In this document: positions 6,870-63,954 of the stretch, one piece after another | How positions within the stretch are numbered: the first letter of the stretch is position 1 | Layout of the letters: each line of letters opens with the position of its first letter | Assembly (NCBI GenBank): GCA_951406725.2 | Contig: OX597817.1 | Span: 95,666,001 to 95,730,000, forward strand | Direction: 5' to 3' | Source of the DNA: Octopus vulgaris | Taxonomy: Eukaryota | DNA length: 64,000 nt | Position numbers and translations under genes: made by a program | Notes under the pieces: model-generated | Seen by the model: the letters and a program-made list of their open reading frames with translations, nothing else | What the model was told of the DNA's origin: nothing | The model's database searches: none

Positions 6870-6901
6870 TTTATTTTAAGCAGCAGAAAATTCAACAAAA
6901 T

Positions 6902-9084: not shown

Positions 9085-9186
9085 ATTTTGTTGAATTTTC
9101 TGCTGCTTAAAATAAAGCATATTACTCTACCACTGGTATTTGAGTACTCTTTTTTCCACCTTGTTTCACATTTATGTGTTTACTCC

Positions 9187-10217: not shown

Positions 10218-11816
10218 ATGGCGCCGAACTAACAAGTCGAGTGTTAATGTGTCTCTCCTAAAGTTTAAAAAGACCTCCAAGAGATCGATGTTATCAGAAG
10301 TGAATTTTGTCTGTAAAGCAAATATAAATGAAAGTACGACAAGACACTGTATTTGAGAAGAATATTTTCGCTTTTGATATAGTATTTGCGACTAGAACAT
10401 ACCTCGCGAGTACATGTGTTGAAACCACGTGTGTTACTTCCTGAAGTCGAAGTGAATTTTGTCTGTGAAGCAACGACAAGACGCTGTATTTTTGAGAAAG
10501 ATATTTTCGCTTTTGGTGTGGTGTATCCGTGTGTTTTGAAAACATCTGAAAATTTGCTGCCTGATACCAAATTGCTTAAATATTGATCTCGCAAAGGGAT
10601 CGAAACATAAGAAAATATTGAAAATATTGCATCTACGAACATCGGAACTCTATTCTTTTCTTTTGTTTACAAAATACAAGTAAAGAATACAGGAATATTG
10701 AAGGTCTGTCTTTTTATCTTTCTTTCTTCTAAAACAGAGTGAAGGTAAGTGTTCTCTCAGTCGGAAGGTAAGGAAAAATATTATTTATTATTAGTGTTCT
10801 CTCAACCAGAAGATAAAAAACAAAAAAACGAAAACAAAAAACAAAAACAAAAAAACATTATTTATTATTATTAATAATCGACGATCTTACGGTTCTAAGA
10901 TCGCCAAATAATACATAGATATAATCGCGATTATAAATATAAAAGATATAAGAATACACGCTATCTGACTATCTGTGTAACCTGCCATACTCTCTCTATC
11001 TCTTTCTTGTCTCTCCATCCATCAGACCCTCTATTTCCGCTCTCTCTACCCCCCTCTCTCTCTCTCTGCCATCGTTTCTCTTTCTGCATCTTTCTCTCAG
11101 ATCAACTTTCTCACATCTCACCCCCTCTCTGTTCTTCTACTTCACTCATTCTCTCTTATATCACTATCCCACCCTCTCTCTCCCTCTCTCTCTCCCTCTC
11201 TCTCTGTTACTCTCCCTCCCTCTCTCTGCCTCTCTTCTCTCCGCTCCTTCACAGATCAAACCCCTTTATCTCTTCTCCTTCTGTCCCCTTATTTCTTTCT
11301 CTACACCACCCTCCCTGTCCCTTTACCACATTCTCTTGCACCTCTATCGCACCCCCTCTTTCCCTCTCTCCTTTTTATTCCTACCTTTCCTCTCCCTGCT
11401 CCCTCTAAGGTTCACCCCCTTGTCTCTTTTTTCCTCTCTCTGTCTCCTTTCCCCACACCACCCTCTCTGTCCCTTTACTTCACTCTCTGGTACCCCTATC
11501 CCCCCTCTCTCACCCTCTCCATTTTATCTCTCTGCCTTTCTTCTCCCTGCTCCCCCTAAGGTTCATCCCCTTGTCTCTCTTTCCCCCTGTCCCTTTACTT
11601 TCTCTCTACCACACCTCTATCCCGCTCACTCTCCCCCTGTTGACCTGCCATTCTTTCTCTTTTCTCTCAGGACAATCCCCTCGTCTCTCTCTCTATCCCC
11701 CCCTGGATGATCTGCCACCAGCTTTTCTCCTTTCTCTTCTCCATCTCACGTCAACCATCTTATCTTTCCTTCTCTCTCTGTTCCTATATTTCACTCTTAC
11801 TGTATCTCGGGCGAAA

Positions 11817-12617
11817 ATGTCAAGAAACTGGTCTGTGAGGGAGTTGAGATTGTTCGTCCGCGCCTGGAAGATTGCCGAGGGCGACTCGCCAAACAATACC
11901 ATTGCAGCGGCGCTAAAGAGCAATGATTTTTCGAGGACCACCGCCCAGATAGAGCGAAAGAAACGAGAATTTCTCCGTTCACACGCTCTAATCAGGCAAC
12001 ACATGGACACTCTGGACATCATCCTAAGAAGTGACTGCACCAGGGAAGACCAAAAAGATGAAGAAAACACCCAGGACCCAACAAAAGGCACAACCGAGAA
12101 ATCTGCAACCAAGGGAAACAATGGCACATGTCCAGCTCCCAACACAACTGAAGACCAAAGAGGTGCGATAGCCGCAAAAAAAAGAAAGCACCCTAAAATT
12201 GATGGGAAACAAGAGGTAAAAGACAAGAAAATTAAAACTAAAAGAAACACTGTTCAGAAAATACAAAAGAACCCCAGCAAGAACTATAAGGGCAAAGGGA
12301 GAAACATCTGCAAATTCTACCTGAAGGGGGACTTCTGGCACGGCGTCGGAGGTGCAAACTGTCGCTTTGCACATCAGAAGCCCTACCAAAACCGCACGGA
12401 CACAAGACAAAAATCCCTCCCTCGGGGAGAACAAAAAGATAAAGAAAAAGAAAAATATAAAAGAAGGAAAAATAGCGCACTGACCACTCCTGAAAGACGA
12501 TATGCGGATGTAGTGCGCGGTAACCCAACAAATGGCCAGCTTCACCCAGATGTGAGAAGAGCAGCAGCTGAACAGCAATCTTTTTTGTGCATGGCACAAA
12601 AATTGTTCAGCAGCTGA
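11817..12617 (+). CDS. LINE ORF1p: Myb/SANT-like N-terminus plus degenerate CCCH zinc finger
   Basis: MSRNWSVRELRLFVRAWK...IAAALKSNDFSRTTAQIERKKREF; ICKFYLKGDFWHG...NCRFAH. Confidence 0.65.
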   Translation: MSRNWSVRELRLFVRAWKIAEGDSPNNTIAAALKSNDFSRTTAQIERKKREFLRSHALIRQHMDTLDIILRSDCTREDQKDEENTQDPTKGTTEKSATKGNNGTCPAPNTTEDQRGAIAAKKRKHPKIDGKQEVKDKKIKTKRNTVQKIQKNPSKNYKGKGRNICKFYLKGDFWHGVGGANCRFAHQKPYQNRTDTRQKSLPRGEQKDKEKEKYKRRKNSALTTPERRYADVVRGNPTNGQLHPDVRRAAAEQQSFLCMAQKLFSS

Positions 12618-15560
12618 CCTGGCTACAAGCACAAAGCTGGAACTACCACCACATAAGGCCACCACCAACAGATGCAGGATGGCCAACACTGACACCAACA
12701 CACACAACAAAAACATTTCTACTGAACGTAGGAGGGCTGCTGCGCGGCAACTGTAAAAGGAAAATTTCATTCCTGAGAGACCTTGTGACATGGAATCAAG
12801 CTATATGCATGGCACTCACAGAAACGCATCTTAGACTCGATATAGGGGATGCAGAAATACACATGTCACAATATGCAGTCATACGCTCAGATAGAAAAGG
12901 GAGGAGCCATGGTGGAGTTGCAATGTACATCCGAGATGACCTAACGCCCCAGGTCCTGTTGTTATATTCAAACTCAGTGTGTGACACTCAAATTGTACAC
13001 ATAAGACAACTGAATATCGTCATATGCACTACATATCGCCCACCAGTTGCCCCAAATCACTCAGGCATATTTGAAGACTGCCTAACAAAAATAGAAGTCC
13101 TCACCAACCTTGAACAACACAACAGTGTATTCTTCATGGGTGACTTTAACTTCCCCAATGTGGAATGGCCTGGGCGGGGGCAGATGCTCTCAGGGATGAC
13201 ACACCATCAGCAGGCACAGGCAGAGTCCCTGCTCCATCTCACAAATGCCTCTTTCATGGAGCAAATAGTTCTGCAACCAACAAGGGCAGATAATATACCG
13301 GATCTCTGCTTCACAAACAATATGGATATTATCCATAATATTAAAGTGATGCCGACAATGATCTCGGATCAGAATATAATGGAGCTGTCTATGTATGGAC
13401 CAAAAGCCCCCGTAGACACACAGCCTATACGAAGCATCCACCATCTCTCCAACTTAAACTTTCATAAAGCAAACTGGAAGTTGATTGAGAAAGAGATCCA
13501 GGATTGGCCTAAATGTCTCTCCACACCGGACATTAACATGAAACACAAACACTTCATGTCCATAATACAAGCCATATGTGACAAATATGTCCCAGTGTGC
13601 AGGGCCAGTACACACAAAAACAAAAACAGGATCCCTAGAGAAAGGAAGATTCTTATGAGACGACGGACAAGGATTGCGAACCGCTTGAGCAAGCACACCA
13701 AAAGTGGTGAGAAGTCTCGGCTCGAGAGAATGCTAATGGAATTTGAGAAAAGTCTGCATCAGTCCCATGAAAAGGAGAGAGCAGATAAAGAAGCTTGGGT
13801 AATAGAAAATATAAAATCAAACCCTAAAGCTTTCTTTAAGTTTGCCAAAGAGACAGCCATAGTGCACCAGAGAATAGGACCTCTCTTCCAAAAAGATGGC
13901 TCTCTCACAGGAAATCCCACGAGGATAAGTGAAATACTGAACGAACAATTCCAAAGTGTGTTCACTACACCTCTAGGACACAGGCAAGTAAACAACCCAG
14001 AAGAATTCTTTGCCACTTTACCTGCGGCCAAAGAGGCAAAAATTGAGTACATCAACATTGAAGATGATGATATCACACTAACCATAGATGAGATTGACAC
14101 AAACTCAGCTGCTGGACCTGATGGATTCCCAGCGATCCTTCTCAAATCGTGCAAACGATCCCTTGCAAAACCGCTACAGCTTCTTTTTCAAAGCTTTCTT
14201 GCAAGTGGTAAGCTCCCAGTCAAATTGAAAGAGGGGGTAATATGCCCTATCCATAAGGGAGGTAGCAGAGCAGATGCAGATCTCACACATCAGCAAAGTC
14301 ATGGAACGAATAGTCCGCAAGAAACTAATCATGTTCCTTGAAGAAAATGACTTGCTGTCTGACACCCAGCATGGGTTTCCACCAGGTAGAAGCTGCCTAA
14401 CACAGCTCCTGCAACACTATGACTGGGTGTTAAAACAGTTACTAAATGGCTCAAATGTGGATGTAATATATCTCGACTTTGCAAAAGCCTTTGATAAAGT
14501 CGACCACGGTATGATCTATCACAAACTGCATGGTCTCGGCATAGGCGGAAAACTTGGAGAGTGGCTGCACAACTTCCTAAAAGACAGAAGACAGACAGCT
14601 GTGCGCAATGGAGTCACCTCCAAGGAAACACAAATAACAAGCGGTGTTCCACAGGGCACTGTCTTGGGGCCATTGATGTTCATAGTGGCCCTTTCAGACA
14701 TGCCCTCAGTTGCTACGATGGCCACCCTTGCTAGCTATGCAGATGACACAAAAGTCTCCGACACAATACAAAACCCTGAAAATATTGCGCATCTGCAACA
14801 GGAGTTGGATACTATATACAGGTGGGCTGAGGACAAAAACATGCAGTTTAATGCAGGTAAGTTCCAGGCCCTGCGCTACCGGCACACAAAGGTAAGCGAC
14901 ATGCAGACTGGATACACTGGCCCAGGAAGCAATCCCTGAGTCAAAATCAGTGCGTGACCTGGGCATTGACATGAGCAATGATGCAGCTTTCCAAGTGCAT
15001 ATTACTAATCTGGTGATAAAATGCAGACGGCTAGCTGGATGGATTCTCCGAACTTTCAGAACAAGAGAGAAGGAGACACTGATGGTCCTCTGGAAAAAAT
15101 TCGTCCTCAGCCGCTTGGACTACTGTTCCCAACTATGGTCACCACACAATATAAAACTAATAGCAGAAATCTAAGCAATTCAGAGAAGCTACACAAAGAA
15201 GATCGTCTCAATGCAAAATATCAGCTACTGGGAAAGACTGAAAGTATTAAACCTCTTCTCCCTAGAGCGAAGGCAGGAGAGATATGCGGTGATATAGATC
15301 TGGAAAATCCTGGAGGGTCTTGTCCCAAACTTTGGCATTCAAAGTTACCCCAACCGCAGAACGGGGTGCCACTGCATGGTGCCAAAGATTCCAACATCAC
15401 CATCAAAATACAGGTCCAGATACTGCAACAGCTTGGGTTTCAGAGGACCACAGCTCTTTAACATCCTCCCTAAATGCCTGAGAGATTACATGGTGTGGAT
15501 ATGGGTTTCTTTAAAACTAAACTGGATGTCTTGTTGTCGGGGGTCCCAGATGAACCTACC
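12587..15560 (+). pseudogene. LINE ORF2 (APE endonuclease + reverse transcriptase), disrupted
   Basis: APE motifs LTETHL, GGVAMY, YRPP, GDFN. RT motifs GPDG, YLDFAKAFDKVDH, SGVPQGTVLGP, YADD. Frameshifts near 14277 and 14930, stop at 15172. Confidence 0.92.
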
Positions 15561-15840
15561 TCACGACAGGAGACACAGATGCGGGCATCGGCATCGAACT
15601 CCCTTGTTGATCAAGTGCCACGTATCAGAGGTGGATTCACATATTAGTGTAGCTCATTCAGCGGTGGTGCCCCAGCATGGCCGCGGCCTTCGGGCTAAAA
15701 CATTTTAAAGGATTTTAAGGATTTTTAAGGATATATATATATATATATGGATGTATATATATATATATATGTATATATACATACATACATACATCATACA
15801 TACATACATACATACATACATACATACATACATACATACA

Positions 15841-27639: not shown

Positions 27640-27691
27640 GGTGATATAGAGGATTTAAATAACATCTTTAGCGTTAAATAACATCTAGAGA

Positions 27692-27739
<48 letters not shown>

Positions 27740-27917
27740 ACATATATATGTGTGTGTGTGTGTATTATATTATATTATGCTACATATATACTGTATTATA
27801 ATACATATATGTTATATTATACTCTCTCTCCATATATATATTTTTTCACATATACATACGTGTTTGTTTGTTTGTATGTATGTATCCATAAAAGTAAATA
27901 TTTTGTTTGCTTCGCAG

Positions 27918-28514
27918 AATGCAAGAATAAAGTTGCTGATATTTGGTTCCTTCTTGATTCTTCGTCAAGTATCACAGCAGACAATTTTGGCAAACAAAAG
28001 AACATAATTGAAAATATGGTTGGTATGCTAGATATACATGCCTTAAAAACCCGTGTGGCTATATCGACGTTTAACCATGAATATCAGTCAATTGTAATGT
28101 TTGGCGACACCAACGACAAGCAAGAAGTCATTAAAAAAATTGAGGCAATTGAGTACGTGGGAGGCGGAACTAAAACTGGTAACGCTTTGAAAAAGGTGAG
28201 GACTGAGCTATTCTCATCTGGGACATGGAGACCAAAAGCTGATCACATAATTATCGTATTTACAGATGGTAGGTCAAGCGATTATAAAGAGACCAAAGCT
28301 GAAGCTGAGCTACTCAAGAAATTAAATATAAAGATATTTGCTGTTGGCATTGGTAGCTCAGTTGATCAGATTGAACTGGAAGATATTGCTAGTAAACCAT
28401 TTAACTCTTTCGTACACAACTTTGAAAGCTTTGATGTTCTCTTGAATGAATATGGAATTCTTACACGTATTGCATGCAACGCATCAACTGAGTTATTGCC
28501 CGCAGATGAAGATG
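27918..28514 (+). CDS. VWA-domain exon (complete domain with MIDAS DxSxS)
   Basis: ttcgcag|AA...GATG|gtaaga, 597 nt, phase 1-1. CKNKVADIWFLLDSSSSI...GGGTKTGNAL...VFTDGRS...FAVGIG. Confidence 0.93.
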
Positions 28515-28739
28515 GTAAGATTAAGACATTAATATTTTAATTATATATATTATTAATATTAATTAATTGATAAATAACTTTGAGTATTTTCTTACACACA
28601 AAAGTTTCCTATTCCATTTAATGTTAAACTTACTCTTTAATGAATTCACAATATTCTCTTTAAAACAAAAATATTTCTGACGTGTAGACATGTTAGAAAA
28701 TAGAAATAACACACACATAAACATACACGAACACGCATA

Positions 28740-31470: not shown

Positions 31471-31663
31471 CGTCTGTCTGTCTGTCACACACACACACAC
31501 ACACACACATACACACACACACACAATGGTATGCATATATTTCAGTGAAACAAAATATTATTTTAGATTATATTCTGTTTTATCCACGTTCCACAACTAC
31601 ATTTGCTCTGTAATCAGTGAAATAATCGTATTGTTATATACTATCTTTTTCTTTGTATCATAG

Positions 31664-32238
31664 CATGTCAGAGGACCATACCAACGGATGTCATGTTCAT
31701 GGTCGGTAACAATCAGTTTGGTAGTCACAGGACTCAAATTATCTTCGAGGGTATAAAAGCGGCAATGAAGAAAGTTAATAGTGGAAAAAAGTTTCGATTT
31801 GGAACAGTATTTGAAGACTGTCTGCCTAACCAAGATGTTAGAGTTGGAATAACTGGAGAGAAAGAAATCATAAAGAAAACTACCAACTTCATACACGGTG
31901 ATTTTACATCTCTTTTCCGCAAACTGAATTTTAATAATTTCTTGCCAAACTCAAACTATTTTACGCGGCATTTCGGAATGGTATTTATCGACCGTACTGT
32001 GAATTTGAACAATCCAGAAATAACTACTGAAATCCAAAGAATTTTGGTAGATGATATGCTTTTATTTTATATTGTAATCGGAGATGGTGTGAATATGTCT
32101 AAAATTCCTGGCATAGCACCTAAGATGATTATCAAAATACCTTCCTATGAAGCCTTAGTTACAACTTTTCCAGTATTGCTTTCAGATACAATATGCAAAG
32201 CAGCAGAAAGCTCAGGCGGCAGACCAGACATTTCATAA
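31664..32238 (+). CDS. Terminal exon: divergent VWA-like domain without MIDAS
   Basis: tatcatag|CA, phase 1. CQRTIPTDVMFMVG...YIVIGDGV...IC, stop TAA at 32238, AATAAA signals at ~32272-32300. Confidence 0.85.
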
Positions 32239-34988
32239 TTTCGTTTCTTTTATGTGGAAGTAAGATTTATTGAATAAAATTCATTTAAAAAAATAAATAA
32301 ACGTAACTTATTGGAAACATTCCAGACACTTATTCAGTGTAAACCTTTGACTATCATTCACAAAATACAGGCCGTCATATCCCCGAGGACAAAATCTACA
32401 AGAGTTCACTCTTCAATTTATTTAATAAAAAGAGATTTTCTTTGTGCCTTAATTTTTTCAAACAGAAGTGCCATTAATGGAAAACCTTCCATAATGAAAC
32501 CATCAACAACTGAATGATTGATAGTTATATTCAGAATAGAAATAGAATATTTTGATTTGATAAAATTGACTGATAATTATTTATAACTCAGGAATAAAAC
32601 GTTTATCTTCAGTTTTGAAGTTTTATTAAGATATAATTATTTATCGTTTAAAAATACCAGAAAGTATAGTAGTCTCATTGTTTTTGTTTTCTTTAAAACA
32701 TTTCTTCAGATTGTTATTATTTGTTATATGTATAAACGTGTTTTTCACAAAAATATTTAAAATGTGTTTAATATATCATACGAATTTACTTTTGTCATAA
32801 TAGAAAATGCAGTTTATCTCTTGCAATAAATATTTATATGTAACAGTATTTTTGAATATATGAAATTATGTTTACCTATCTAAATTATATTTTTCTCCTA
32901 ATCTTTCCAGCATCAGATTTTAATTGAATTCGGTATTTACTTGTTTGGATGCAAGACTGTATGTTTGTGTATGTGTCTCTATGTATGTTGAGACTAACGT
33001 CACACAAGCACTATAGCTTATGAAAGAGTAATAAAGTATCAGAAAATAATATACATATATACTTTATTGGAAAGCATGTAGGTTAGGAACAAAGCAGTTA
33101 ATTTTAAATATCAACAGTTAGCTCATGCAATCTAATATATATCTATGATATTCAGCTATAATAGACTCGACTAATTAAGTACCATATGATAATTAGTGCT
33201 GCACTTTAGTAAGAATTGATATATAATGCTGCAGTTTAGTAAGAATTTATATATAATCATTGTAAATGCAATATATACAATTGAAACACAATTGTAAAGT
33301 TGTTTCAACATTTCATGGTCTCTATATAGACTTGTTAACGGCTGTTTTCTTAACAAAAGTTTATAAAATGTTAAAAAATGATCTACCAAATCACGTACTC
33401 GAAAAATTTCAGTCAATCAAAATTTTCTATTTTATCGGAGAAAGAAAACAAAAACCTAGGAGGGAGATAAATTTAAAGAATTAGAAATTTATTTAACAAA
33501 ATTTATTTAGAACCTTAGGGAAAAGTTGACATTTGCGGGCAAAGAAACAATTACAACCAGGTTGCGATCCTTTTACATTTCATCATCATTTCATATCACA
33601 GTCTACTTAAAATTGCTTTGAAAAATTGTCGAAGGTTATTTTTCGTGTTTAGCATAAAAACAGAGTTACGAATAAAACTCAATGTTCTTACTGTTTTGCT
33701 TGAAATATTGTTAGTGTTTTTGTTTAGTCTTGTAAAGATACATAAAAAGCTTATGTTGATGTAAAATTGTTTTCGTTTGTTTTAATAAGAAAATTATGAA
33801 ATAGTATATTGTTGACGCTATGCCTCACAATAAAATTTGAAGTCAGTGAAGCTACTGATTTTGTTGCTATTTCTGTATGTACGTGGTTTTAAAAATTTCT
33901 TTGATTTCATTTTAAGATATTTCATTTTAAGATCTGGGTGTTGCATTTGCGATTGATGTTTGGAAGGCATTTTTCTTGTAGTTGTAAGGACTGTGAGAAC
34001 TAGGACTGAATTTTGCTGCGTTAAATATATGTGCCTCTCGCAGATTTAGCTGGTCATTCAGTCTTAGTATTTTTGTTTTGTAGTGTAGGTACACTCGCAC
34101 AAGGGGACTTAATAAGTTCCTTGTGAATGAAAAGGCGTCCATGTTAGGAGACTCGTGATTTAGTGTACGATTCTTGACAGTTGTTTTTGGTAGGGATATG
34201 TGAAATTACAAAATTTGACGCTTTTAACCATGTTTAGGACCCCAGATTCAAATTCATCGAGCAAAGGGTTACAAAGAGTTTTATAAGATTTAAGCTTACA
34301 AGAGCGACGTTTATGTTTGGATACCTCTTTAATGTCGAAGAAGAAAACGTGCAGCCTAATTTTTCTTAAGCCATTAGTCTTCTGAAGAAGAGGTAATAGA
34401 TATGATCCGAGGCGGAATGGAATATCCTTAAGTGAAATATTAAGGGATTGCCTGTCTATATTGTGTAATGCTTATTATTTGTATTCTTGAGCATGCATAC
34501 ATACTTTTACACTTCATCATTTCATATCACAGTCTACATACATGCATACATACATATATACATTCATACATACTGGTTTTAAATGTTGGCACAAGATCAG
34601 CAATTTCGGAGCAGGTAAGTCGATTACATCAACAACAGTGTTCGGTTAATATAATTATTTTATCAATCCCGAAAGGATGAAAGGCAGAGTGCCAGGCTCT
34701 ATCTGCTCTTATGCTGAGTATCTTCCCTTAGATAACATCGGTGGCGTGGAGAGGGCAGACTTGTATACATAGATGATAGGTAGTCTTCCTTCAAAACAAG
34801 ACCCTGTGCAGATGTTGCAGATATACGGTTAACTCTAATCGGCGCAGACCCCTAGGAAATGGAAAATGAAAACCTATCACTTTCTTTCAGAGACCTGCAA
34901 TAGTGAATACAATTTCTACACATCTGCTTCTTATCCAGAATTCATATACAAGCAAGACTTTACTGATATCTTGCATTGAGATAGCAGC

Positions 34989-37900
34989 TGTTACACATTC
35001 ATATCTATGTGTATACGTGCATCCCCACTCTTGGCACTATTTTGTTAGTGAATAGTACAAACTGTGTGTAAAGTATATAATGTATTACTACGCTGAAGTT
35101 GAGTCCGTGTAACATGAGCAGTAAATAAACACGTAACAATAACAATGGTCTTCATCTGGTTGTCTATCCCATTAGAACACAAACTACACATAACATGGTG
35201 GCAGCGGTAAATAATTAAACGGAAACTGTGCCTTTACAACAAATCAGAAACGCAACGAACCAGGAAAGTAACAAACAAAACATCGCTTCGTCTTCGGACA
35301 ACATACACGACGATCCAAGATGGCGCCCCCCGTCGCCGTACAGATGAATCTACATCCGATTATGGATTGGGGCTCCGATGATATTTTGGAAGCATTTAAA
35401 AAGTTTAAACAGAAAACTCAACTAGCTTTCAAAAGTTTCCTGAAAGACACAACTGACGATGAGAAGGTAAGCTATATCCTTTTATGGTCAGGTAATAAAG
35501 GAATAGACCTATTCAATAGCTGGGATATGTCAGAATCGGACTGCAATAACCCAGACACACTTCTTGAGAAATTTGAAAGGCACCTAGAGCCCAGGTCGAA
35601 CCATAGAATTCACAGATACGAATTCCAGGGCCTGAAACAAGACCCACAAGAAACAATTGACAATTTCCAGTCAAGACTGAAAAATGTTGCAGAGAAATGC
35701 AAATTCAAAGACAGGGAGGAGAGAATTGTAGACCAATTAATATGGGGGTGTGCCCACAAAGAAGTACAAAAATCACTAATTGGTAAGGACGCTCTCCAGT
35801 TGGTAGAAGCAGTAGACACTGCAAGAGCATTCGAAGCCACTACCAAACAAATGGCCTCATTTAGCTTACAAACAAGCTCACTAGATAGCAGTGTAGATAC
35901 TGTATCTAGGCACAGGACACTTACCCACAAACAAAGAACATACCAGTACTGTGGTACAGAGCATGAATTTAATAACCGAAAAAAATGTCCTGCATTCGGT
36001 ACACACTGCAAAGCATGTGGAAAACTTAACCACTGGGAAAAAATGTGTAGGTTAACAAAATCCCAGAAATACAAGCCCCAATTTTCAAAGAGGAGCAGAA
36101 ATAGAAGAGATATACATGCACAACAACAGGAAAAAAACATCTCAGAGGAGGAATTCTTGGCAGTCGGCATAATAAATGTGCATGAGATGGGAAAGGACGA
36201 CCGGAAGAAAGAAGATGAAGCATACACGACAATAAGAATTCAAAAGAAGGCCGGAAGGAAAAGAACAAACATAGACTTAAGGCTGAAGATAGACACTGGG
36301 GCCCAGAGTGATATCTTGCCTGTCAGATTATACAAGAAGATGTTCCCAGAAAATATGACAGAAGAGGATAGGGTCAGGAAAGGAATCCTCACACCAAGTG
36401 ATGTGGTCCTCACTGCGTACGGAGGAACCAGGATTCCACAACTGGGTAAAACAACTATCACAGGGACACACAAAGGAAAAATAATTAAGTGTTCTTTTTA
36501 TGTCACAAGAACAGAAGGCCCAGCAATTCTTGGACTCGATACCTGCAGGAGGTTAAATATTGTGTCGGTCAATGCTGAAGTGAAAGCAGCTCCAAGCAGG
36601 ATTGACAGTGATATGCCTATCAAAGACCGACCACCAATCACAAACAAACAGGAAATGGAAGGACTAAGCAGAAAGGTCCACCACATTGTAAATGTGACAA
36701 CCAATAATCTAGTGGAAATCAAAGAGGAGACCAGCAAAGATGAAGAACTTCAGCTCCTTACACAGATGGTGATTCAGGGGTGGCCAGAAAAGAGACATCA
36801 GGTACAGCCCCTAATTCGTGAATATTGGGCCATCCATAATGATATATCAGTGGAGGATGGAAACCTGATGGTTGGATCCCGAATAATTATACCTAAGTCA
36901 ATGCAAGAAGAGATTCTTGACAAGATCCACCAAGGGCATCTCGGAATGGAAAAATGCAAGCTCCGAGCCAAGTCAGCAGTATATTGGGTAGGCATGTATA
37001 AAGACATGGAAAAGACAGTTTCTACAAGCCACATCTGTCAAAAGTACAGAAACTCACAACAAAAGGAAGAAATGATATCTAGTGACATCCCAAGAAGGCC
37101 ATGGCAAACTATTGGAGTAGATCTGTTCACAGAGGGCCAAGAATGGTATTTGATAATGGCCTGCTACTACTCCAAATTTCCATTTGTGAGAAAAGTGAAA
37201 GACCTGACAGCCAAAACAATCACCACAGTAGCTCGAGGACTTCTAGCAGAGCAAGGAATACCAGAGCAGATCATGTGTGACAATGGAACCCAGTTCACAT
37301 CACAAGAATTTAAAAAGCTAACCGATGAGTATGTGTTCAATATTACAACTTCATCTCCACACTATCCCAAAGGCCATGGGTTTATAGAAAGACAGGTGCA
37401 GACAGTGAAGAGAACACTAGTCAAATGTCGAGAGACTAAGGAAGACCCACACCTGGCACTTCTGTCCCTACGAGCGACACCACTGAGAGCTGATATGAAA
37501 TCCCCAGCAGAATTGCTGAATGGCAGGAAGTACAAAACTACCCTGCCAACTAAGATCCAACCTCCTATTGACCAGGAAGAGACAAGGGAAAAGCTAGCAG
37601 CCACTCAAGAACAATCACAGAGCTATTACAACAAACATGCACAATATTTACCTGAGATACTTGGAGGACAACATGTGCATACTCAAGATCCCATAACTAA
37701 AACATGGATCCCAGCACAGGTTGTCAGTAGAGCTGAAACTCCAAGATCATATATAATAGAAACGGAATCTGGTAGGCAGCTGAGACGCAACAGGGCCCAC
37801 ATCCGCCCAACACCAGAACTGTTGAGGACAACGTGTACAACACCTGCTGCATTAGTGACAACACCCACAGAATCATCACCCCAACGTGCACAAACCACCT

Positions 37901-38388
37901 ATCAGCAGCCCAACAACACACCTCAGACACCGGTGCGAAGCACAAGATCCACCAGATGGAGAAAGAACATTCTGCCACCGGTTCGATACCGTTAAAGAAA
38001 AAAAAAGAAAATGAAAAGAGAAGTATCTAATTCAGCTAGACTTTAAAGCAGAGGCAGAATAATCTCACGACTTCTGCTGTAGGATTGCCACCTCAGGCTG
38101 ACAATCCATAGAGCAACGGAGACTACTCATAATTGTCTTCACTGCCAAAAGACCCCTCTTTTTTTTCAAGAAGAAGGGATGTTACACATTCATATCTATG
38201 TGTATACGTGCATCCCCATTCTTGGCACTATTTTGTTAGTGAATAGTACAAACTGTGTGTAAAGTATATAATGTATTACTACGCTGAATGTCGAGTCCGT
38301 GTATCATGAAAAGTCAATAAACACGTAAACAATAACAATCGTTTTCAATTGGTTGTCTATCCCATTAGAACCCAAACTACACATAACA
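34989..38388 (+). mobile_element. Complete Gypsy-type LTR retrotransposon lacking RT/RNase H (non-autonomous)
   Basis: LTRs 34989-35195 and 38180-38388 (TGTTA...TAACA). 5-bp TSD GCAGC (34984-88, 38389-93). PBS TGGTGGCAGCGGT at 35196 (complement of tRNA-Leu 3' end). PPT aagaagaaggga at 38168-38179. Confidence 0.95.
35320..37995 (+). CDS. Gag-protease-integrase polyprotein (891 aa), no RT/RNase H
   Basis: CCHC CKACGKLNHWEKMC; protease KIDTGA; IN Zn region HQGHLG and core VDLF / CDNGTQF / FIERQV; no YxDD motif. Confidence 0.92.
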   Translation: MAPPVAVQMNLHPIMDWGSDDILEAFKKFKQKTQLAFKSFLKDTTDDEKVSYILLWSGNKGIDLFNSWDMSESDCNNPDTLLEKFERHLEPRSNHRIHRYEFQGLKQDPQETIDNFQSRLKNVAEKCKFKDREERIVDQLIWGCAHKEVQKSLIGKDALQLVEAVDTARAFEATTKQMASFSLQTSSLDSSVDTVSRHRTLTHKQRTYQYCGTEHEFNNRKKCPAFGTHCKACGKLNHWEKMCRLTKSQKYKPQFSKRSRNRRDIHAQQQEKNISEEEFLAVGIINVHEMGKDDRKKEDEAYTTIRIQKKAGRKRTNIDLRLKIDTGAQSDILPVRLYKKMFPENMTEEDRVRKGILTPSDVVLTAYGGTRIPQLGKTTITGTHKGKIIKCSFYVTRTEGPAILGLDTCRRLNIVSVNAEVKAAPSRIDSDMPIKDRPPITNKQEMEGLSRKVHHIVNVTTNNLVEIKEETSKDEELQLLTQMVIQGWPEKRHQVQPLIREYWAIHNDISVEDGNLMVGSRIIIPKSMQEEILDKIHQGHLGMEKCKLRAKSAVYWVGMYKDMEKTVSTSHICQKYRNSQQKEEMISSDIPRRPWQTIGVDLFTEGQEWYLIMACYYSKFPFVRKVKDLTAKTITTVARGLLAEQGIPEQIMCDNGTQFTSQEFKKLTDEYVFNITTSSPHYPKGHGFIERQVQTVKRTLVKCRETKEDPHLALLSLRATPLRADMKSPAELLNGRKYKTTLPTKIQPPIDQEETREKLAATQEQSQSYYNKHAQYLPEILGGQHVHTQDPITKTWIPAQVVSRAETPRSYIIETESGRQLRRNRAHIRPTPELLRTTCTTPAALVTTPTESSPQRAQTTYQQPNNTPQTPVRSTRSTRWRKNILPPVRYR

Positions 38389-38572
38389 GCAGCCAAATCT
38401 CTCTTCTATAAGAGAGGTAATATTTATCACCATTTAAACGTGGATGATCAGTCAGAGCAAATTATACCGCGGTAGTTACCATGAGAAAGCCTCGCATTGG
38501 CTTTTGATGCAGAATGCATTCTTTTTTAAATAAACAAAAATACAACAGCAAACAAAACAAAAACAACAACAA

Positions 38573-38760
38573 AAAAGATATATGTACGTGCACACATATT
38601 TATGTATATTAGGTCATCCCATAAGCAACGTCCGAATTTTGAGTAAGGAAAAAACTGATCTAATTTTACATTTTATCGAAATTTAATCCTGTATATAATT
38701 TCTATCATTATTGAGGACTTCTTTCCATCTACTCATCCGGTTTTTAATTCCACTGGTGAA
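38573..38760 (-). repeat. Near-identical inverted copy of mariner 3' end plus flank (41882-42069)
   Basis: Contains the TIR tattaggtcatcccataagcaacgtccg and about 35 bp of flank. Confidence 0.9.
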
Positions 38761-41049: not shown

Positions 41050-42035
41050 TTAACGTTACATATTTCTTTTTACAGAACAATTTGACTGAATTAATCACTA
41101 ATATGAACCCTTCAAAGATGGATATATCAAAGGAACATTTAAAGTACATAATGCTTAATTAGTTCAAAAAGGGAAACAGTGCAGCAGAAGCAACCCGAAA
41201 TATTCATGCTGTTTATGGGGAAGAGTGCTTGAACGAAAGAAGTTGCAGAAGATGGCTTGCAAAGTTGCCATCTTCAACAGCCTGGAACGTTGCCTAAACT
41301 CGGAAAATGGGTTCTCCTTGATTTGACAGGAGCCAATCGAAATCACTAGTGGATATCTGTTCATCTCTTCACTCTTGTGAAGGTATCTCACCATTTTTGG
41401 ACAGATTAGTGACTGGTGATGAAAAATGGACATTTTATGAAAATGTTAAGCGATGTGGAGAACAGGCTAAACCACAACCCAAAAAGACCTCCATGTAAAA
41501 AATGGTTCATTCTGTTTGTGGGGAATTGCATTAGAGTCATCCACTTTGAGCAGCTACCAACTAATGTAACAATTACTGCTTATTATCAACAGTTGGAATA
41601 TTTGGATGCTGCTTTGAAGAAAAAAAGACTTCGGCGGATCATAAGGGAGTAGTATTTCATCATAATAATGCAAGGCACCACACTGCAAAGATTGCATCGG
41701 TAAAAAAAATCGAAGAACTTGGCTAGGAAAAAATCCATCCGCGTTATTCTCCGAACTTCGTTCCTTCTTGATTATCATTTGTTTCGAATTTTACAGAATC
41801 ATTTAGATGGATTAGTACTCAAAAGCACCAAAGAAGTCGAAACTAATTTCTCTTACCTCTTCTCATAAAAACCAAAATTAATTCACCAGTGGAATTAATA
41901 ACCGGATGAGTAGATGGAAAGAAGTCCTCAATAATGATAGAAATTATATACAGGATTAAATTTCGATAAAATGTAAAATTAGATCAGTTTTTTCCTTACT
42001 CAAAATTCGGACGTTGCTTATGGGATGACCTAATA
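41050..42035 (+). mobile_element. Degenerate mariner transposon (transposase pseudogene + 3' TIR)
   Basis: FKKGNSAAEATRNIHAVYG; VTGDEKW; HNARPH; YSP..PSDYHLF, with many frameshifts. TIR ends gacctaaTA. Confidence 0.88.
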
Positions 42036-42062
42036 TACATAAATATGTGTGCACGTACATAT

Positions 42063-42262
42063 ATCTTTTAGCTTTTATTTTTTCAGCCATTGGAATGCGG
42101 CCATGCTAGAACACCGCATTGAAGTATTAAGCCAAACAAGTCGACCTCAGAACTTATTTTATTGAAGCTTGGTATTTATTCCATCGGTCTCTTTTCCGAA
42201 CAGCTAAATTACGGGGACATAAACAAACCGAAACCGATTGTCAAGCGGTGGTAGAGGCCAAT
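42063..42262 (-). mobile_element. tRNA-SINE 3' fragment
   Basis: Homologous to the tail of 20183-20593. Confidence 0.7.
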
Positions 42263-42423: not shown

Positions 42424-42431
<8 letters not shown>

Positions 42432-43403
42432 AGGGATATTAGCCAACTGAATATGGCTAGGGACAGGGCAGGGTGGTGGGGGTGTCACTGTTGCATTTAG
42501 CCCCAGGCGAACATCAACGTCACCAGATAGGCCGACGCCATCACGGCGTCCTCTATCTTGCAAAGGGAGATCATTCACCAAGAAGCGGATACCACACACG
42601 GACCTAGGTTTCAAGGTGTATTGCCTATTATCAACGTGTGGTAGGCATCGCCTCTCGATGAACGACCAACCATGCAAGATATATATAAAGATTTTCAAGT
42701 AAATACATTTACTGATTTCGAAAATCTGTTCGACAGCAATAATAATTCTCTAAATGAGAGATATAGACAGTGACTGCTCCATAATATAAGGGATATTAGC
42801 CAACTGAATATGGCTAGGGACAGGGCAGGGTGGTAGAGGTGTCACTGTTGCATTTAGCCCCAGGCGAACATCAACGTCACCAGATAGACCGACGCCATCA
42901 CGGCGTCCTCTATCTTGCAAAGGGAGATCATTCACCAAGAAGCGGATACCACACACGGACCTAGGTTTCAAGGTGTATTGCCTATTATCAACGTGTGGTA
43001 GGCATCGCCTCTCGATGAACGACCAACCATGCAAGATATATATAAAGATTTTCAAGTAAATACATTTACTGATTTCGAAAATCTGTTCGACAGCAATAAT
43101 ATATATCTTGCATGGTTGGTCGTTCATCGAGAGGCGATGCCTACCACACGTTGATAATAGGCAATACACCTTGAAACCTAGGTCCGTGTGTGGTATCCGC
43201 TTCTTGGTGAATGATCTCCCTTTGCAAGATAGAGGACGCCGTGATGGCGTCGGCCTATCTGGTGACGTTGATGTTCGCCTGGGGCTAAATGCAACAGTGA
43301 CACCCCCACCACCCTGCCCTGTCCCTAGCCATATTCAGTTGGCTAATATCCCTTATATTATGGAGCAGTCACTGTCTATATCTCATTTAGATAATTATTA
43401 TTG

Positions 43404-44639: not shown

Positions 44640-46160
44640 TTTTGTTTGTGTGAATGTGATTTGTAATTTCGGGGTGGTGTGTGTAGGTGTGTGAATGTCC
44701 GTGTTCACATGTGTATATATGTGTGAAAGTGTTGGTTATGGATGCTAAAATCTTATTGCAAGTGTATATGTATATGTGCTTTTTTCCTGGGATGTGTGAG
44801 GGTTTGTGTTCTAGTGTGAGGATATTGTGTTTGTGCAAGTGTATTTGCGTCGGGGGTTAGCATTGTTTTTTTGTGTGTGTGATTTTGTATATCTGTATGT
44901 GTTTCAGTATGTGTTTGTTTTGGATGTGTGCCTGGGAGGGGGGTATGTTAGAGTATGTTTAGTTGTGGTCTGTAGTTTTGAATAAGATTATTTTCCCTAT
45001 TTATTCGTGTTTGGTCTGTGGTGTTATTCGGGAATAGTGGGGAAACTAAGAATTTGGAGTACTTATTGTGTGCACAGAGGTCTAAGTGTCCACTAAGTGG
45101 TATCTGTCTTGCCGTGGGGTCCATCAGTTGTTGGCGGTGAACTGTCATCCTTTCTCTGAGGGTAAGGCTCGTTTGCCCTATGTAGTCTTTGTGGCACCCT
45201 TCACACCTTTTGACATAGAGTAAATCTTTTGATGCGCAGGTGAAATTAATTTTTATGACAAAAGTGTGTCCCGACTGGAATGTGTACGCTGATCCTTCAA
45301 TGAGGTGGATACAAGTCCTGCAGTTGGAACGACCACATTTTTTTACGGTGGGCGGTGGGTTTGTGTTGTGTAATTTTGCATTGGTGAGTAGGTTTTTTAG
45401 GGATTTGGGTTGTCTTTTACTTTTTATTATTTTATGGGCTGCGAGTAATTTATTTTAGACGTGGGTCTTGATTTAGTTGTGGAATGTTGTTGTATATAAC
45501 TGTGTAAGCTTCTGCATTTCTTACATTGTGTGTTGAGAGATAGGGGAGACTATTTACTGTACTGTGGGTGTGTTTTGGTTTTCGTAAGTCTTGTGTGTTA
45601 ATTGATTTGGCCCGTTTTATTTCGTGTCCACTAGTGATGCTGGGTAATGTCTTTCGAGGAGAATTGCCCTTAGTTCTCGGAGTCTTTTAGCTGTGTCATT
45701 TGAGACAATTGTGCAGATTCTTCTCGCTAGTTTGAAGGGGATATTTGTCTTTGTGTGCTTTGGGTGATTGGAGGTGAATAGAAGGTATTGTTTAGAATCA
45801 GTGGGTTTGTAATGGATGTCAGTTTCAATGTTGATGCCTTTTTTTAATGATTAGAATGTCAAGAAAAGGGAGTTGGTCCTGACTATATTCCATTGTGAAT
45901 TGGATGTGGTTGTTTACACTGTTGATAAGGTTTTTGAAGTCAATAAGTTGGTCGAGTGTATGGGATCATAGGATGAGGCAATCATCTAAGTAGCGTTTCC
46001 AATTCTCCCACAGGTATTTGTGGCAAGACTGGCCGTGCTTATATTTGGATTTTTCATAAATATGTGATTCCAGGTAGACCATCACCAGGTTTGCAACTTT
46101 CGTACCCATTGCAGTTCCTGAAACCTCTCTGTAAGTGTTATTATTAAAATTCATAAAGTT
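43455..46160 (-). mobile_element. Degenerate Neptune-type PLE (RT + GIY-YIG, long 3'UTR with 151-bp tandem repeats at 43601-43901)
   Basis: GTAMGT, RYLDD, PFLDI, SNHP; KCGRSNCRTC; LLYVKRCEGC..YIGQT...RMTVHRQQ. Confidence 0.88.
43549..43593 (-). ncRNA. Type I hammerhead with U3-A8 core at PLE 3' end
   Basis: ttactt-TTGACAA-t ctttt tcta aaaag t-GAAA-ccgg-TA-aagtaa. Confidence 0.75.
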
Positions 46161-47462: not shown

Positions 47463-47810
47463 AAAGAAACTTGTTTGACATTATCAAAATATCATTCCCT
47501 AGATACATGTTTTAACACACGATTTCCTATTAAGAATTTTACATAATAAAAGCAAAGAACGATACCCCCCACACATATCTTGTTGTTCCTTCACCTGTCT
47601 TCATCTTTTGGTTTCTGTAAATTTGGACTATATATATATATATAGTCCAAATTTACAGAAACCAAAAGATGAAGACAGGTGAAGGAACAACAAGATATGT
47701 GTGGGGGGTATCGTTCTTTGCTTTTATTATGTAAAATTCTTAATAGGAAATCGTGTGTTAAAACATGTATCTAGGGAATGATATTTTGATAATGTCAAAC
47801 AAGTTTCTTT
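47463..47810. repeat. 348-bp spacerless palindrome centred on (TA)8
   Basis: Arms are reverse complements about position 47636/47637. Confidence 0.95.
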
Positions 47811-48656
47811 AAAAACACAAAAAACGTTAGATTCACTTCAATATTTAAATATAATTTGTCAAAACATTTTCGTCGCTTTGAAACCGCGACCTATTCACTG
47901 ACAAAATTCCGTGCTGCAACACGCATATCAAGCTACTACCTCCTGCTGCCCACTACCTAGAACTCTCATGAGTAAAAGAGAGACAGAGACAGACAGAAAA
48001 AGGAAAATCTCCCTTGCATTTGAAAACTATGGAAATATTTTAAAAAACATTTCTTTTAATTTTTCCACAATTTAATTGCTTTTCATTTTTTTTAATCTAA
48101 GTTGAAAAGTCGCAAAGACTGAAAGCGGTACTAAAATTTTCTTCATGATAAAATTATTTTAGCATTTTCTACTTTGTCTTATTTTCCTTATACATATCAA
48201 CTCGTTTGTTCCTTTTCAACCTTATATATATATATAAGGTTGAAAAGGAACAAACGAGTTGATATGTATAAGGAAAATAAGACAAAGTAGAAAATGCTAA
48301 AATAATTTTATCATGAAGAAAATTTTAGTACCGCTTTCAGTCTTTGCGACTTTTTCAACTTAGATTTAAAAAAAAATGAAAAGCAATTAAATTGTGGAAA
48401 AATTAAAAGAAATGTTTTTTAAAATATTTCCATAGTTTTCAAATGCAAGGGAGATTTTCCTTTTTCTGTCTGTCTCTGTCTCTCTTTTTTACTCATGAGA
48501 GTTCTAGGTAGTGGGCAGCAGGAGGTAGTAGCTTGATATGCGTGTTGCAGCACGGAATTTTGTCAGTGAATAGGTCGCGGTTTCAAAGCGACGAAAATGT
48601 TTTGACAAATTATATTTAAATATTGAAGTGAATCTAACGTTTTTTGTGTTTTTAAA
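47808..48656. repeat. ~850-bp near-perfect palindrome centred on a short (TA)n; right arm continues as a pLTR-like repeat to 48748
   Basis: Centre ~48229/48230; arms differ mainly in homopolymer lengths. Confidence 0.93.
48559..48609 (+). ncRNA. Candidate hammerhead with G3-(C/U)8 core (copies at 47855-47905 -, 29066-29116 -, 51497-51541 + deleted)
   Basis: tttgtca-GTGAA(T/C)A-g gtcgc...gcgac-GAAA-at(a/g)t-TT-tgacaaa. Confidence 0.6.
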
Positions 48657-59006: not shown

Positions 59007-59602
59007 CAACTAATAAGGGTGAGAAAATTGGATACTAATTTAATAGTACATCCATTTAACACCAAGTGGCTTAGTGCATAAAAACCTGGATTTCGATAAA
59101 TTTTATACATAAATATAAGAGAGTAACCACTATGTGGTCGACTCTAGTACTAAAAATAGATCCGCTAGGTTTCAGCCACAAAGAATTGTTTCCGATGAAA
59201 GTTAGCACGACTACTAGCGCAAACGAACAGGGCAAATAAAAATAACAAAAATGCAGATTAGTTCAGGACAATTGTTTCGCTATTAATAAATTATGTAATT
59301 TTACTCACATAACATATCTGTAGCTCTTCAGCCGAACCCGTCCAGAATACAATTTACTCAACCGCACGTTAGATTTTACCATAACGATAAACACACGTGC
59401 GGTTCAGATATGTTATGTGAGTAAAATTACATAATTTATTAATAGAGAAACAATTGTCCTGAACTAATCCGCATTTTTGTTATTTTTATTTGCCCTGTTC
59501 GTTTGCGCTAGTAGTCGTGCTAACTTTCATCGGAAACAATTCTTTGTGGCTGAAACCTAGCAGATCTATTTTTAGTGCTAGAGTCGACCACATAGTGGTT
59601 AC

Positions 59603-59652: not shown

Positions 59653-60474
59653 CCCTGTTATCGTATCCGCCTTTCACCATGTGCTTCTTATCTCGTTGCC
59701 CGCTATCTTTCTTTCCTTCCTCTTTATATATATATATATATATATATATTGTCCCTTGTTGTTTTTTGTTTCCGTTTATATATATATATATATATATATG
59801 TATTAATAAAAAGAATTCCAACCTTGTCTGATTTTCACGTTTTATTTACAATCTTATAATGATATATTATAAGATAATATATTATAATTGAATAAAATAA
59901 AATGAAATAGTAGAATGTTAAATATTCATTCTGATTGAACTAGTACTTTCATGCATTGAATTCTGCAATCTTCGGGTTCATGTAGTAGTGTTGACAGTCA
60001 TGCTTCACAATTTTTGACTGTAGCAAGATGAGTGATTCTGTGCTATAAATACAGCTGGGTAGGCTCCAGAGTGCTAGGTTTTGCAAACTGTATTCTGACC
60101 AATCAGTGTGTAGTATCACTCAATTACTTAAGCTGATTGGTTGGTTGAGCTGATTGGTTTAGGCATCACGCTTTGTTGGACAGGTCAAGAGTCCTGTATC
60201 TTGACCCTGGCCGAAGCAGCAATTGTTGGGTTATTTTTAGAAATGTTGTAAATATCCTTTGTCAGAGATTTTTATATTTTTATATTTCAATTGTCATCAT
60301 CATCATTGTCAGCACCTTAATTATTGTTGCTAGTGGTGATGGTGGTGGCAATAGAACTTTTAACCCTAAATAAGATAATTTTCCTGCTATCTTCGTCTTG
60401 ATCACCTTTAGTATTGTTGTTGTTGTTAGTGGTCATGGTCGTAGCAGTGGAAGTAATACCTCTAAGTATTATTA

Positions 60475-62131
60475 TTATTGCTTATTTAGCTTGGGTTCGA
60501 ATTTATCAATAAAATTCTTTTCTCTGATTTTCCTCTCGATTTCACTTGGGCTGTGTAATTTGTAGAATGGAAATATTATATATATTTTCCGACCACATGT
60601 TGCTAGGTGGTTACTCAAAGGTATCTGACGGACCTCTGGGTCTCTAATCTGTTGCCGGTGTACACGTGAGCGTTCTAATAGTGCGTTTCCCGTCTGACCT
60701 ACATATATTTCTTCACAATTTGGGCATTTGATGCAGTAAATTAAATTTCTGCTTTTGCAGTTCATATTCGCGTTTGTGAATATTTTCCCGGTTTTTGTGT
60801 TTATATATTGACCGGTATGTATGAATTGGCATGTGCCACATCGGCTATCATTGCATTTAGATACCGTGAATGTTTGGTCTTTGTTGCTGAGGTCAAATTT
60901 TGCCTTTGTTAGTAATGTTTTCAAGTTTTTAGGCTGTCTTTTACTAAGCACCATAGCTCGATCCTTGATTATGTCTTTTAATTCATTACTTTGGGCAATG
61001 ATTGGTAGGTTTGCTTTGGCAATGTTGAAGATATTCTGGTGACATGGGTTGTGTGTCACTATGAATGGTATGACTTGTTCTTGTTTTCCTCTTCCTTGGG
61101 TTGTCCTAAGTTGTTGTATAGGTATTTTTATAGCCCGCTGTATGCCATTTTCTATAAGTAGAGATGGGTATTTTTGTTTGAGCAAAAATTCTCTTAGTTC
61201 TATTAGGCGTTTGTTCCTGATATTTGCATCTTCTACAATAGTACAAATTCTTCTGGCTAGGCAGTATGGGATGTTACGTTTTGTATGTGGTGGATGGCAC
61301 GACTTAAAATTTAGGTATTGATGTGTGTCTGTGTGTTTATAGTATATATCTGTGGTGATGGTGGTGTCTTTTTTAATTACCATTATATCCAGGAATGGTA
61401 ATTTGGTACTACTCATCTCCTTTGTAAATTTGAGAGATGGGTGTAGGTTGTTCAGGAGGATATTGAACTCTTCCAGAGTATTTAGAGATTCTGTCCAGAT
61501 TATGAAACAGTCGTCTAGGTATCTCTTCCATGCCTTTTCAATATACTTTCTAAATCCAGTGCCATAGTTTACCTCCACCTCTTGGTAGAGTTGTTCTTCT
61601 AAGTATCCCATTACAGAGTTGGCGTAAACGGGAGCAAACCTCGTTCCCATCGCCGTGCCTCTAATTTGGATGTAATTCTTTCCATTGAAGAAGAATGTGT
61701 TATTTTCTAGAATAAGTTTGACTGTGTCTAATATAAATGGCACTGTGAATCTGCTGGGAATCACTTCTCTATGTTTTTCTAACCAGTATTTAATCGCCTT
61801 TATTCCTAAATCGTGTGGAATATTGGTGTAGAGGCTTACCACATCAAAACTTAGTAAAACTGAATTTGTTTCTGTTGTTTTGGGAAGATGGGACAGGAAG
61901 TCGATGTCATCCCTGATGAAACTTGGTATGTAAGTACATAGTGGTTTCAAAACAATGTCAATAAAATTGCTTAGACGGTGGGCATGCTGGACCAGCTATA
62001 ATAGGTCTAAGTTTTAGGTCTTTTGGATGTAATAATTTTATGTACTCACTTTCTTGTTCTTTTACTGCCTGTTGAATGTTTTTTGATTTGTGTATTTTTG
62101 GTAAGCCGTAGAAGTTGCTGGGTTTTGGTTG
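60475..62131 (-). CDS. PLE RT + GIY-YIG (5'-truncated; one frameshift near 61980)
   Basis: FYGLPKIHK..RPII; FDVVSLYTNIP; GTAMGT; RYLDD; CNDSRCGTC; LIYCIKC..YVGQT. Confidence 0.92.
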
Positions 62132-63216: not shown

Positions 63217-63710
63217 TAATAATACTTAGAGGTATTACTTCCACTGCTACGACCATGACCACTAACAACAACAACAATACTAAAGGTGATCAAGACGAAG
63301 ATAGCAGGAAAATTATCTTATTTAGGGTTAAAAGTTCTATTGCCACCACCATCACCACTAGCAACAATAATTAAGGTGCTGACAATGATGATGATGACAA
63401 TTGAAATATAAAAATATAAAAATCTCTGACAAAGGATATTTACAACATTTCTAAAAATAACCCAACAATTGCTGCTTCGGCCAGGGTCAAGATACAGGAC
63501 TCTTGACCTGTCCAACAAAGCGTGATGCCTAAACCAATCAGCTCAACCAACCAATCAGCTTAAGTAATTGAGTGATACTACACACTGATTGGTCAGAATA
63601 CAGTTTGCAAAACCTAGCACTCTGGAGCCTACCCAGCTGTATTTATAGCACAGAATCACTCATCTTGCTACAGTCAAAAATTGTGAAGCATGACTGTCAA
63701 CACTACTACA

Positions 63711-63755
63711 TGAACCCGAAGATTGCAGAATTCAATGCATGAAAGTACTAGTTCA
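63711..63755 (+). ncRNA. Hammerhead with CCGAAGA (U4C) core (mirror copy at 59936-59980, -)
   Basis: tgaac-CCGAAGA-t tgca gaattcaa tgca t-GAAA-gtac-TA-gttca. Confidence 0.7.
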
Positions 63756-63954
63756 ATCAGAATGAATATTTAACATTCTACTATTTCATTTTATTTTATT
63801 CAATTATAATATATTATCTTATAATATATCATTATAAGATTGTAAATAAAACGTGAAAATCAGACAAGGTTGGAATTCTTTTTATTAATATATTCTTCTA
63901 TACACAATCACACACACCCATATATATATATATCTATATATATATGTATATATA

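Follow-up and report, generated by a model that had tools for sequence, protein, structure and literature searches.

Within a 64,000-nucleotide stretch of the Octopus vulgaris genome (contig OX597817.1 of assembly GCA_951406725.2, positions 95,666,001 to 95,730,000 of the forward strand; hereafter the window, numbered from its first letter), we analyzed a 3,400-bp Gypsy element at 34989-38388, which carries two long terminal repeats (LTRs), a primer-binding site (PBS), a polypurine tract (PPT) and a 5-bp target-site duplication (TSD). Its single open reading frame (ORF) joins Gag and protease (PR) to integrase (IN) across an in-frame deletion of the reverse transcriptase (RT) and RNase H. The same junction recurs in two other gene models, one of them from a second species, and we regard it as likely that the element belongs to a multi-copy lineage lacking RT, whether its ORF served that lineage or was merely carried along. 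As a whole, the explanation that we prefer has an even chance of being correct: a semi-autonomous Gypsy sub-lineage in Octopus, supplied with RT in trans, whose fused ORF contributes its own proteins. For the claim that this RT-less lineage supplied its own proteins, the balance is likewise about even. The parts of the element are the following.

34984-34988, plus strand: 5' TSD, GCAGC, an exact match to 38389-38393
34989-35195, plus strand: 5' LTR, 207 bp, with TG...CA ends, TATATAA at 35074 and AATAAA at 35124
35196-35208, plus strand: PBS, immediately 3' of the 5' LTR
35320-37995, plus strand: single ORF of 891 amino acids, Gag-PR-(start of RT)-IN, with no internal stop
35320-35890, plus strand: Gag capsid-like helical region, residues ~1-190, from the predicted fold and weak Foldseek matches
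35941-36048, plus strand: nucleocapsid with two Cys/His arrays, residues 208-243, the first ligand position substituted here
36220-36560, plus strand: aspartic protease domain by motif, DTG at residue 325 (nt 36292)
36643-36650, plus strand: in-frame deletion junction by alignment to relatives, with 451 codons of RT and RNase H missing; common to gene models P0123 and P0136
36928-37038, plus strand: integrase HHCC zinc finger, residues 537-573, ligand position 570 substituted here
37120-37389, plus strand: integrase catalytic core, with D601, D654 and E690 all kept
38168-38179, plus strand: PPT, a purine run adjoining the 3' LTR
38180-38388, plus strand: 3' LTR, 209 bp, with TG...CA ends
38389-38393, plus strand: 3' TSD, GCAGC, identical to the 5' TSD

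Direct LTRs with TG...CA ends, together with the PBS, PPT and TSD, place the element among the Ty3/Gypsy LTR retrotransposons. All of these signals had been listed in a preliminary description of this DNA and were recovered with their positions, ends and exact repeats, as was the uninterrupted ORF of 891 residues, which sets the element apart from terminal-repeat retrotransposons in miniature (TRIM) and large retrotransposon derivatives (LARD), whose internal region is non-coding. In this ORF, Pfam recognized only the zinc-binding (524-578) and core (608-683) domains of integrase. Neither RT nor RNase H gave a Pfam match at E<=1, and none of five YxDD variants was present; the element therefore does not encode the two activities that define an autonomous Gypsy element, and the earlier reading of Gag-PR-IN without RT motifs stands. 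Foldseek with the C-terminal half ranked the integrases of PFV and Ty3 best (E 3e-18 to 2e-13), and in the AlphaFold model PR and IN form separate confident domains with a low-confidence linker between them. Residues 1-255 have a confident predicted fold (predicted local distance difference test, pLDDT, 87.7), for which every listed Foldseek match was a retroelement capsid, led by PNMA2, dArc, Copia and Ty3 at E 0.007-0.05, with the best at 0.007 and none at E<=0.001. Close octopus relatives show weak Pfam gag matches, and a PDB sequence search with the Gag-PR half returned nothing informative. The protease region had no Pfam match; its K-D-G-A is nearly invariant across relatives, and the gene model matching the window ORF carries the source name 'Peptidase A2 domain'. 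The window's own O. vulgaris model, P0010, reproduces residues 1-494 and 752-891 at 100% identity and omits residues 495-751.

Alignment to relatives located the loss of RT and RNase H, 451 residues (~1.35 kb), at window residue 442/443. Fifteen of the 16 aligned relatives carry 347-452 extra residues exactly after residue 442 (449-452 in 12 of these), the remaining one starting downstream of the junction, and in one of the 15 the extra block contains RVT_1 and RT_RNaseH. The junction thus lies at ~36643-36650, within the range of ~36640-36670 suggested by the preliminary description. Its right breakpoint falls 5-6 residues beyond the last aligned residue of Ty3 RT/RNase H (475 of 478), which indicates that RNase H was removed whole. 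If the Ty3 alignment is extended to the left, RT would have kept about 25 residues at its N terminus, together with the PR/RT boundary, and the domain boundaries for releasing PR and IN appear to survive.

RT-bearing members of the family, the kind of partner that the preliminary description had proposed to look for, are present in O. sinensis at the protein level, with RVT_1 and RNase H, and are 87-98% identical to the window element over integrase, which marks the octopus element as a young derivative. In these members the Pol order is PR-RT-RNase H-IN; the window element keeps PR before IN, with a gap in the place of RT and RNase H. Taking the O. sinensis relatives as a proxy, the family RT is closest to Ty3/Gypsy, the best match among solved structures being Ty3 (E 2.5e-52 and 1.5e-60).

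To find other copies of the junction, residues 395-500 were used as the query against proteins shorter than 490 residues. Two of the 17 matches, P0123 from O. vulgaris and P0136 from O. sinensis, span the identical junction; among the matches listed for longer proteins (the best 120 of 271 in one search), only P0010 has it. The three deleted copies lie on different contigs (176.7 Mb for the window copy and P0010, 147.5 Mb for P0123 and 213.4 Mb for P0136). The junction occurs in 3 of the 10 O. vulgaris and O. sinensis models that cover the left flank (P0010, P0123 and P0136), while the other seven run into the start of RT; as predicted proteins at several loci in two species, the copies resemble an amplified non-autonomous deletion derivative. 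Arginine at window residue 451 is found in all three deleted copies vs none of nine other octopus rows, two of which probably represent one locus; N462, common to the window copy and P0136, is likewise absent from all nine. In a protease-region tree of 16 rows, the window copy and P0123 form a clade with support 100/99. P0123 is 91.6% and P0136 90.6% identical to the window ORF, and the deleted copies have no decay changes in common at conserved sites; with copies 8-9% apart in protein, we read them as separate insertions of different age. The 64-kb window itself contained no second copy, solo LTR or RT-bearing partner, and none of 17 pattern matches from a scan of prokaryotic genomes for stray family DNA was confirmed.

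The preliminary description had left the choice between a non-autonomous lineage and a single post-insertion deletion. That the junction recurs on different contigs and in another species supports the former and effectively refutes the latter, for which the junction would have been unique to this locus with RT present in all relatives. A single deletion at the window locus would require that the other two models be orthologues or annotation artefacts. Gene models do skip parts of the element, as P0010 does with residues 495-751, and P0136 might be the orthologous insertion. However, P0123 comes from the same species and another contig, and P0136 is less similar to the window copy than an RT-bearing O. 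sinensis copy is over the same range (90.6% vs 97.5%). Splicing was rejected as the origin of the common junction: relatives encode K-E at the point where a splice would require its GT donor, and, judging from the genetic code, no such donor is compatible with these residues. We therefore consider a single deletion very improbable. An assembly artefact was also rejected, the junction having been found again in the assembly of another species.

In RT-bearing copies, the junction is flanked by look-alike pentapeptides. Judged from the protein, which gives an upper bound, the codons of the P0020 flanks could agree at as many as 12 of 15 nucleotides, a level reached by 0.4% of 264,628 in-frame window pairs, and those of P0006 at 11 of 15, reached by 2.2%; the comparison window was picked afterwards, and these fractions are uncorrected for that choice. 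In such elements, RT is known to switch templates under the guidance of homology (PMC6894440). Look-alike flanks in the same frame together with template switching would explain both the position of the junction and the kept frame without selection.

We reconstruct the history of the semi-autonomous lineage as follows. An in-frame deletion took away RNase H and all of RT except its first ~25 residues; it would have arisen between two short in-frame look-alike stretches, most simply through a template switch of RT. The deleted form was then very probably copied to several loci; its presence there indicates that its RNA was packaged and reverse-transcribed by the RT and RNase H of intact family members, with the LTRs, PBS and PPT as cis signals and the TSD pointing to integrase-type insertion. 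The fused ORF may have been translated, its Gag, protease and integrase products entering mixed particles, or may have favored the packaging of its own RNA. The window copy has later taken random hits, including two at zinc-ligand positions.

These hits show that the window copy is uninterrupted and not 'intact', as it had been called. Five private changes were counted in 407 scored sites, and 36 of the 891 residues are found in the window copy only. Four of the latter (208, 507, 563 and 570) stand at columns conserved in at least 80% of 76 relatives, and two of the four, 208 in the nucleocapsid and 570 in the integrase HHCC finger, are zinc-ligand positions. All seven Cys/His positions of the nucleocapsid (208-243) are at least 90% conserved in 64 relatives, the first being the one substituted here. 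With these ligands lost, the window copy is probably no longer functional as a source of protein.

The two LTRs are 93.8% identical, differing by 11 substitutions and 2 single-base indels (13 of 209 columns). The first 109 columns contain only one of these differences and the remaining 100 contain 12 (P=0.022 when the breakpoint is scanned); column 110 lies approximately at the U3/R boundary predicted from the TATA box at LTR position 86, and with the breakpoint fixed there P=0.001. We rejected this divergence as a measure of age, since the differences crowd into a single half and an age so derived cannot be reconciled with the open frame: at 2.7% divergence for each LTR, with indels added, the neutral probability of no stop is 0.03 and that of no frameshift 2e-4. 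Because divergence read as age would almost surely have broken the frame, it is likely that one R-U5 half came from another template, through co-packaging in reverse transcription, cDNA recombination or gene conversion. The same two probabilities, by making a neutral open frame very unlikely, would favor a domesticated host gene, in which host selection held the Gag-PR-IN fusion open. This explanation is exceedingly improbable: private substitutions hit highly conserved zinc ligands, the confinement of LTR divergence to one half leaves no clock, and LTRs, PBS and TSD are all kept, as in a young insertion.

Turning to selection on the retained proteins, we compared changes in the nucleocapsid-protease region (187 scored sites) with random single-base changes. 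The 10 changes common to the window copy and P0123 have a mean BLOSUM score of 1.8 vs -0.29 for neutral changes, a value reached in none of 20,000 simulations, and the 14 changes after the split of these two copies have a mean of 0.64 (P=0.02). Integrase shows almost no lineage-specific change. These comparisons of predicted proteins give a hint of selection after the loss of RT, with none for integrase specifically. The preliminary proposal that the element provides capsid, protease and integrase itself, RT alone being borrowed, is plausible; the conservative post-split changes lend it indirect and weak support at the protein level, and the conserved-site test described below gave P=0.06.

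RT appears to be lost at other junctions as well. The O. bimaculoides gene models P0121 and P0122 have a second, different in-frame junction, which starts a few residues further left and rejoins near the end of RNase H, so that ~414 residues are lost and a tail of RNase H is kept; its flanks are compatible at 10 of 12 bases. P0135 of the same species shares the left breakpoint of P0121 and P0122 and then, by eye, apparently continues in another frame; these three gene models could include splicing. Among more distant relatives, P0189 and the pair P0076/P0106 keep PR and IN and have no RT; the latter two are 97% identical, have a common junction and are possibly alleles. It is conceivable, though somewhat unlikely, that parasitism for RT only is a recurring, selected strategy, in which at least two independent Octopus lineages, possibly joined by P0076/P0106 and P0189, would have excised RT-RNase H, kept a functional Gag-PR-IN with which they assembled and integrated particles of their own, and borrowed only RT from co-assembled partners. 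If so, the LTR differences from the predicted U3/R boundary onwards would record that a second template had been co-packaged.

Several observations weigh against a semi-autonomous lineage with proteins of its own. The other deleted copies are known only as predicted proteins from gene models. The residue just after the junction is K in P0136 and Q in the window copy and P0123, and the integrase-region tree, which is unresolved among the 10 octopus-family rows, does not group the window copy with P0136. Seventeen other RT-less proteins with scattered breakpoints were found among the 231 with both flanks, a count biased by an RT-less query. Most of these also lose the protease or the integrase zinc finger, as would be expected of one-off deletions or model artefacts, and the left part of one, P0158, matches an RT-bearing protein at 99% identity. 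As for selection, the conservative common changes may predate the deletion, and 13 of the 14 post-split changes are in P0123, where several stand close together and could stem from recombination over one patch. Within the protease region, the changes do not significantly avoid conserved sites (P=0.06), and a pooled Fisher test of conserved sites (P=0.04) was set aside, region being a confounder. Nor does an open frame call for selection, the probability of no stop being 0.17-0.6 at a decay of 0.45-1.5% estimated from private changes.

Part of this evidence would equally suit a replicating RT-less lineage in which the ORF is a mere passenger, all proteins coming from intact partners and the frame being kept through same-frame flanks (one in three a priori) and youth. 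The in-frame similarity of the deletion flanks and an open frame that fits neutral decay both agree with it, as do the 16 private changes of P0136, 8 of them at outgroup-conserved sites, the two zinc ligands lost from the window copy, and an integrase region almost devoid of lineage-specific change that could be tested. By contrast, protease-region changes after the split are more conservative than expected under neutrality (P=0.02), O. bimaculoides has a second, independent junction removing RT that again preserves the frame in two of three models, and long open frames persist in copies 8-9% apart. On balance, we hold the passenger role to be a serious, somewhat unlikely alternative.

We consider it improbable that there is no retrotransposing lineage at all. 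In that case, the three copies would go back to repeated post-insertion deletion within an RT-bearing subfamily missed by the sampling, microhomology making the site a hotspot, or to the spread of one deleted copy by segmental duplication or gene conversion. The flanks are plausible as a hotspot, the junction residue that differs in P0136 agrees with it, the skew of the LTR differences towards the 3' half (12 of 13; P=0.022 when the breakpoint is scanned) hints at recombination at the window locus, and the sample consists of gene models only. However, the linked residues 451 and 462 occur in none of nine RT-bearing models, the three copies, on different contigs in two species, have no decay changes in common, and the window copy has a clean TSD.

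Elements that lost a different module offer a comparison. The barley Copia element BARE-2 reportedly became non-autonomous by the loss of one polyprotein module, Gag ('Life without GAG'), and would be the mirror case of the octopus element, which is without RT-RNase H. A Drosophila mdg3 variant with a deletion of ~1.3 kb, possibly without RT, is also said to have been amplified in cultured cells and would, if so, be a close precedent; our search did not confirm it. The mouse intracisternal A-particle (IAP) element 1Delta1 (PMC6466679) has a 1.9-kb internal in-frame deletion and a fusion ORF and is non-autonomous yet amplified, its fusion protein acting in cis. The octopus element resembles it in having an in-frame internal deletion that creates a fusion ORF and in its probable amplification in trans. 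However, 1Delta1 loses part of gag and pol and needs both Gag and Pol in trans, whereas the octopus element loses only RT-RNase H, and 1Delta1 derives from a betaretrovirus-like endogenous retrovirus rather than a Gypsy element. The plant semi-autonomous Gypsy elements RLG_Sabrina_SA, RLG_WHAM and RLG_Quinta and the TR-GAG elements are described (PMC9744471, PMC11302176 and PMC13570524) as having no RT, a Gag or Gag-protease ORF, a PBS and LTR ends, and as needing an autonomous partner. Like these, the octopus element is without RT and keeps a Gag ORF; unlike them, it keeps a full-length, in-frame DDE integrase. In the open-access article texts searched, we came across neither an amplified Gag-PR-IN element that lacks RT-RNase H alone nor this octopus family; the latter may have an entry in Repbase, Dfam or GyDB or in the supplements of PMC6238403. 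PMC10886601, PMC12440569, PMC3248453 and PMC8392823 contributed nothing specific to the comparison.

The semi-autonomous LTR elements described so far retain Gag, and sometimes protease, and drop RT and integrase, which is usually accounted for by the need for Gag in bulk. A lineage dropping only RT-RNase H would show which Pol functions can be traded between polyproteins in one particle and which profit from supply in cis, and two independent origins within one genus put this question within reach of public octopus genomes. Such elements are missed by survey pipelines based on RT, and LTR-based dating would misjudge the window copy. If the ORF is only a passenger, the element represents an ordinary deletion subfamily.

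With respect to family, the element probably belongs to the Mag lineage of Ty3/Gypsy, judging from its sequence features. It has two Cys/His arrays, and its 5-bp TSD and LTR size fit; its PBS is presumably of tRNA-Leu type, Leu or Ser being expected in this lineage, and the window contains no tRNA gene. Mag elements, including the SURL C-clade, have a single ORF, short LTRs, a 5-bp TSD and frequently a Leu PBS (PMC3286476), carry two Cys/His arrays (PMC2577118) and make up over a third of mollusc Gypsy elements (PMC6238403). The window element shares the single ORF, short LTRs, TSD and arrays with this lineage and differs from it in having no RT or RNase H. Beyond octopus, two further proteins are followed by a sea-urchin element (78% identical over integrase) and amphioxus elements (61-65%), the closest named non-octopus relatives. 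The RT of O. sinensis P0020 is 80% identical to that of the Strongylocentrotus purpuratus element P0003 and ~74% identical to those of amphioxus elements, values that are high for such phyla and may possibly reflect horizontal transfer.

Elsewhere in the window, a host gene with a von Willebrand factor A (vWA) domain lies just upstream of the element, its last exon-like ORF being ~2.7 kb away. A vWA exon (PF00092, E 1.5e-41) is at 27689-28540, and the likely last exon at 31621-32238, vWA-like by eye only, ends in a stop, with AATAAA at 32274. Two 202-nt inverted arms (38559-38760 and 41882-42083), 97% complementary and 3.1 kb apart, begin 170 bp past the 3' LTR and are a possible DNA transposon or pair of miniature inverted-repeat transposable elements. 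Further near-perfect inverted repeats of 166-286 nt, including a spacerless, perfect palindrome of 174 nt, lie at 6864-9122, 42424-43384, 47463-47810, 47808-48656 and 59123-59602. At 59789-63902, two arms of 1,771 nt, 100% complementary and 572 nt apart, contain RT and GIY-YIG ORFs; they may be an inverted Penelope-like pair or an assembly fold-back. A GIY-YIG fragment on the minus strand (44948-45454) is probably a further Penelope-like remnant, and a broken long interspersed nuclear element (LINE) at 11409-15700 has its endonuclease (12572-14341) and RT (14241-14939) in different frames.

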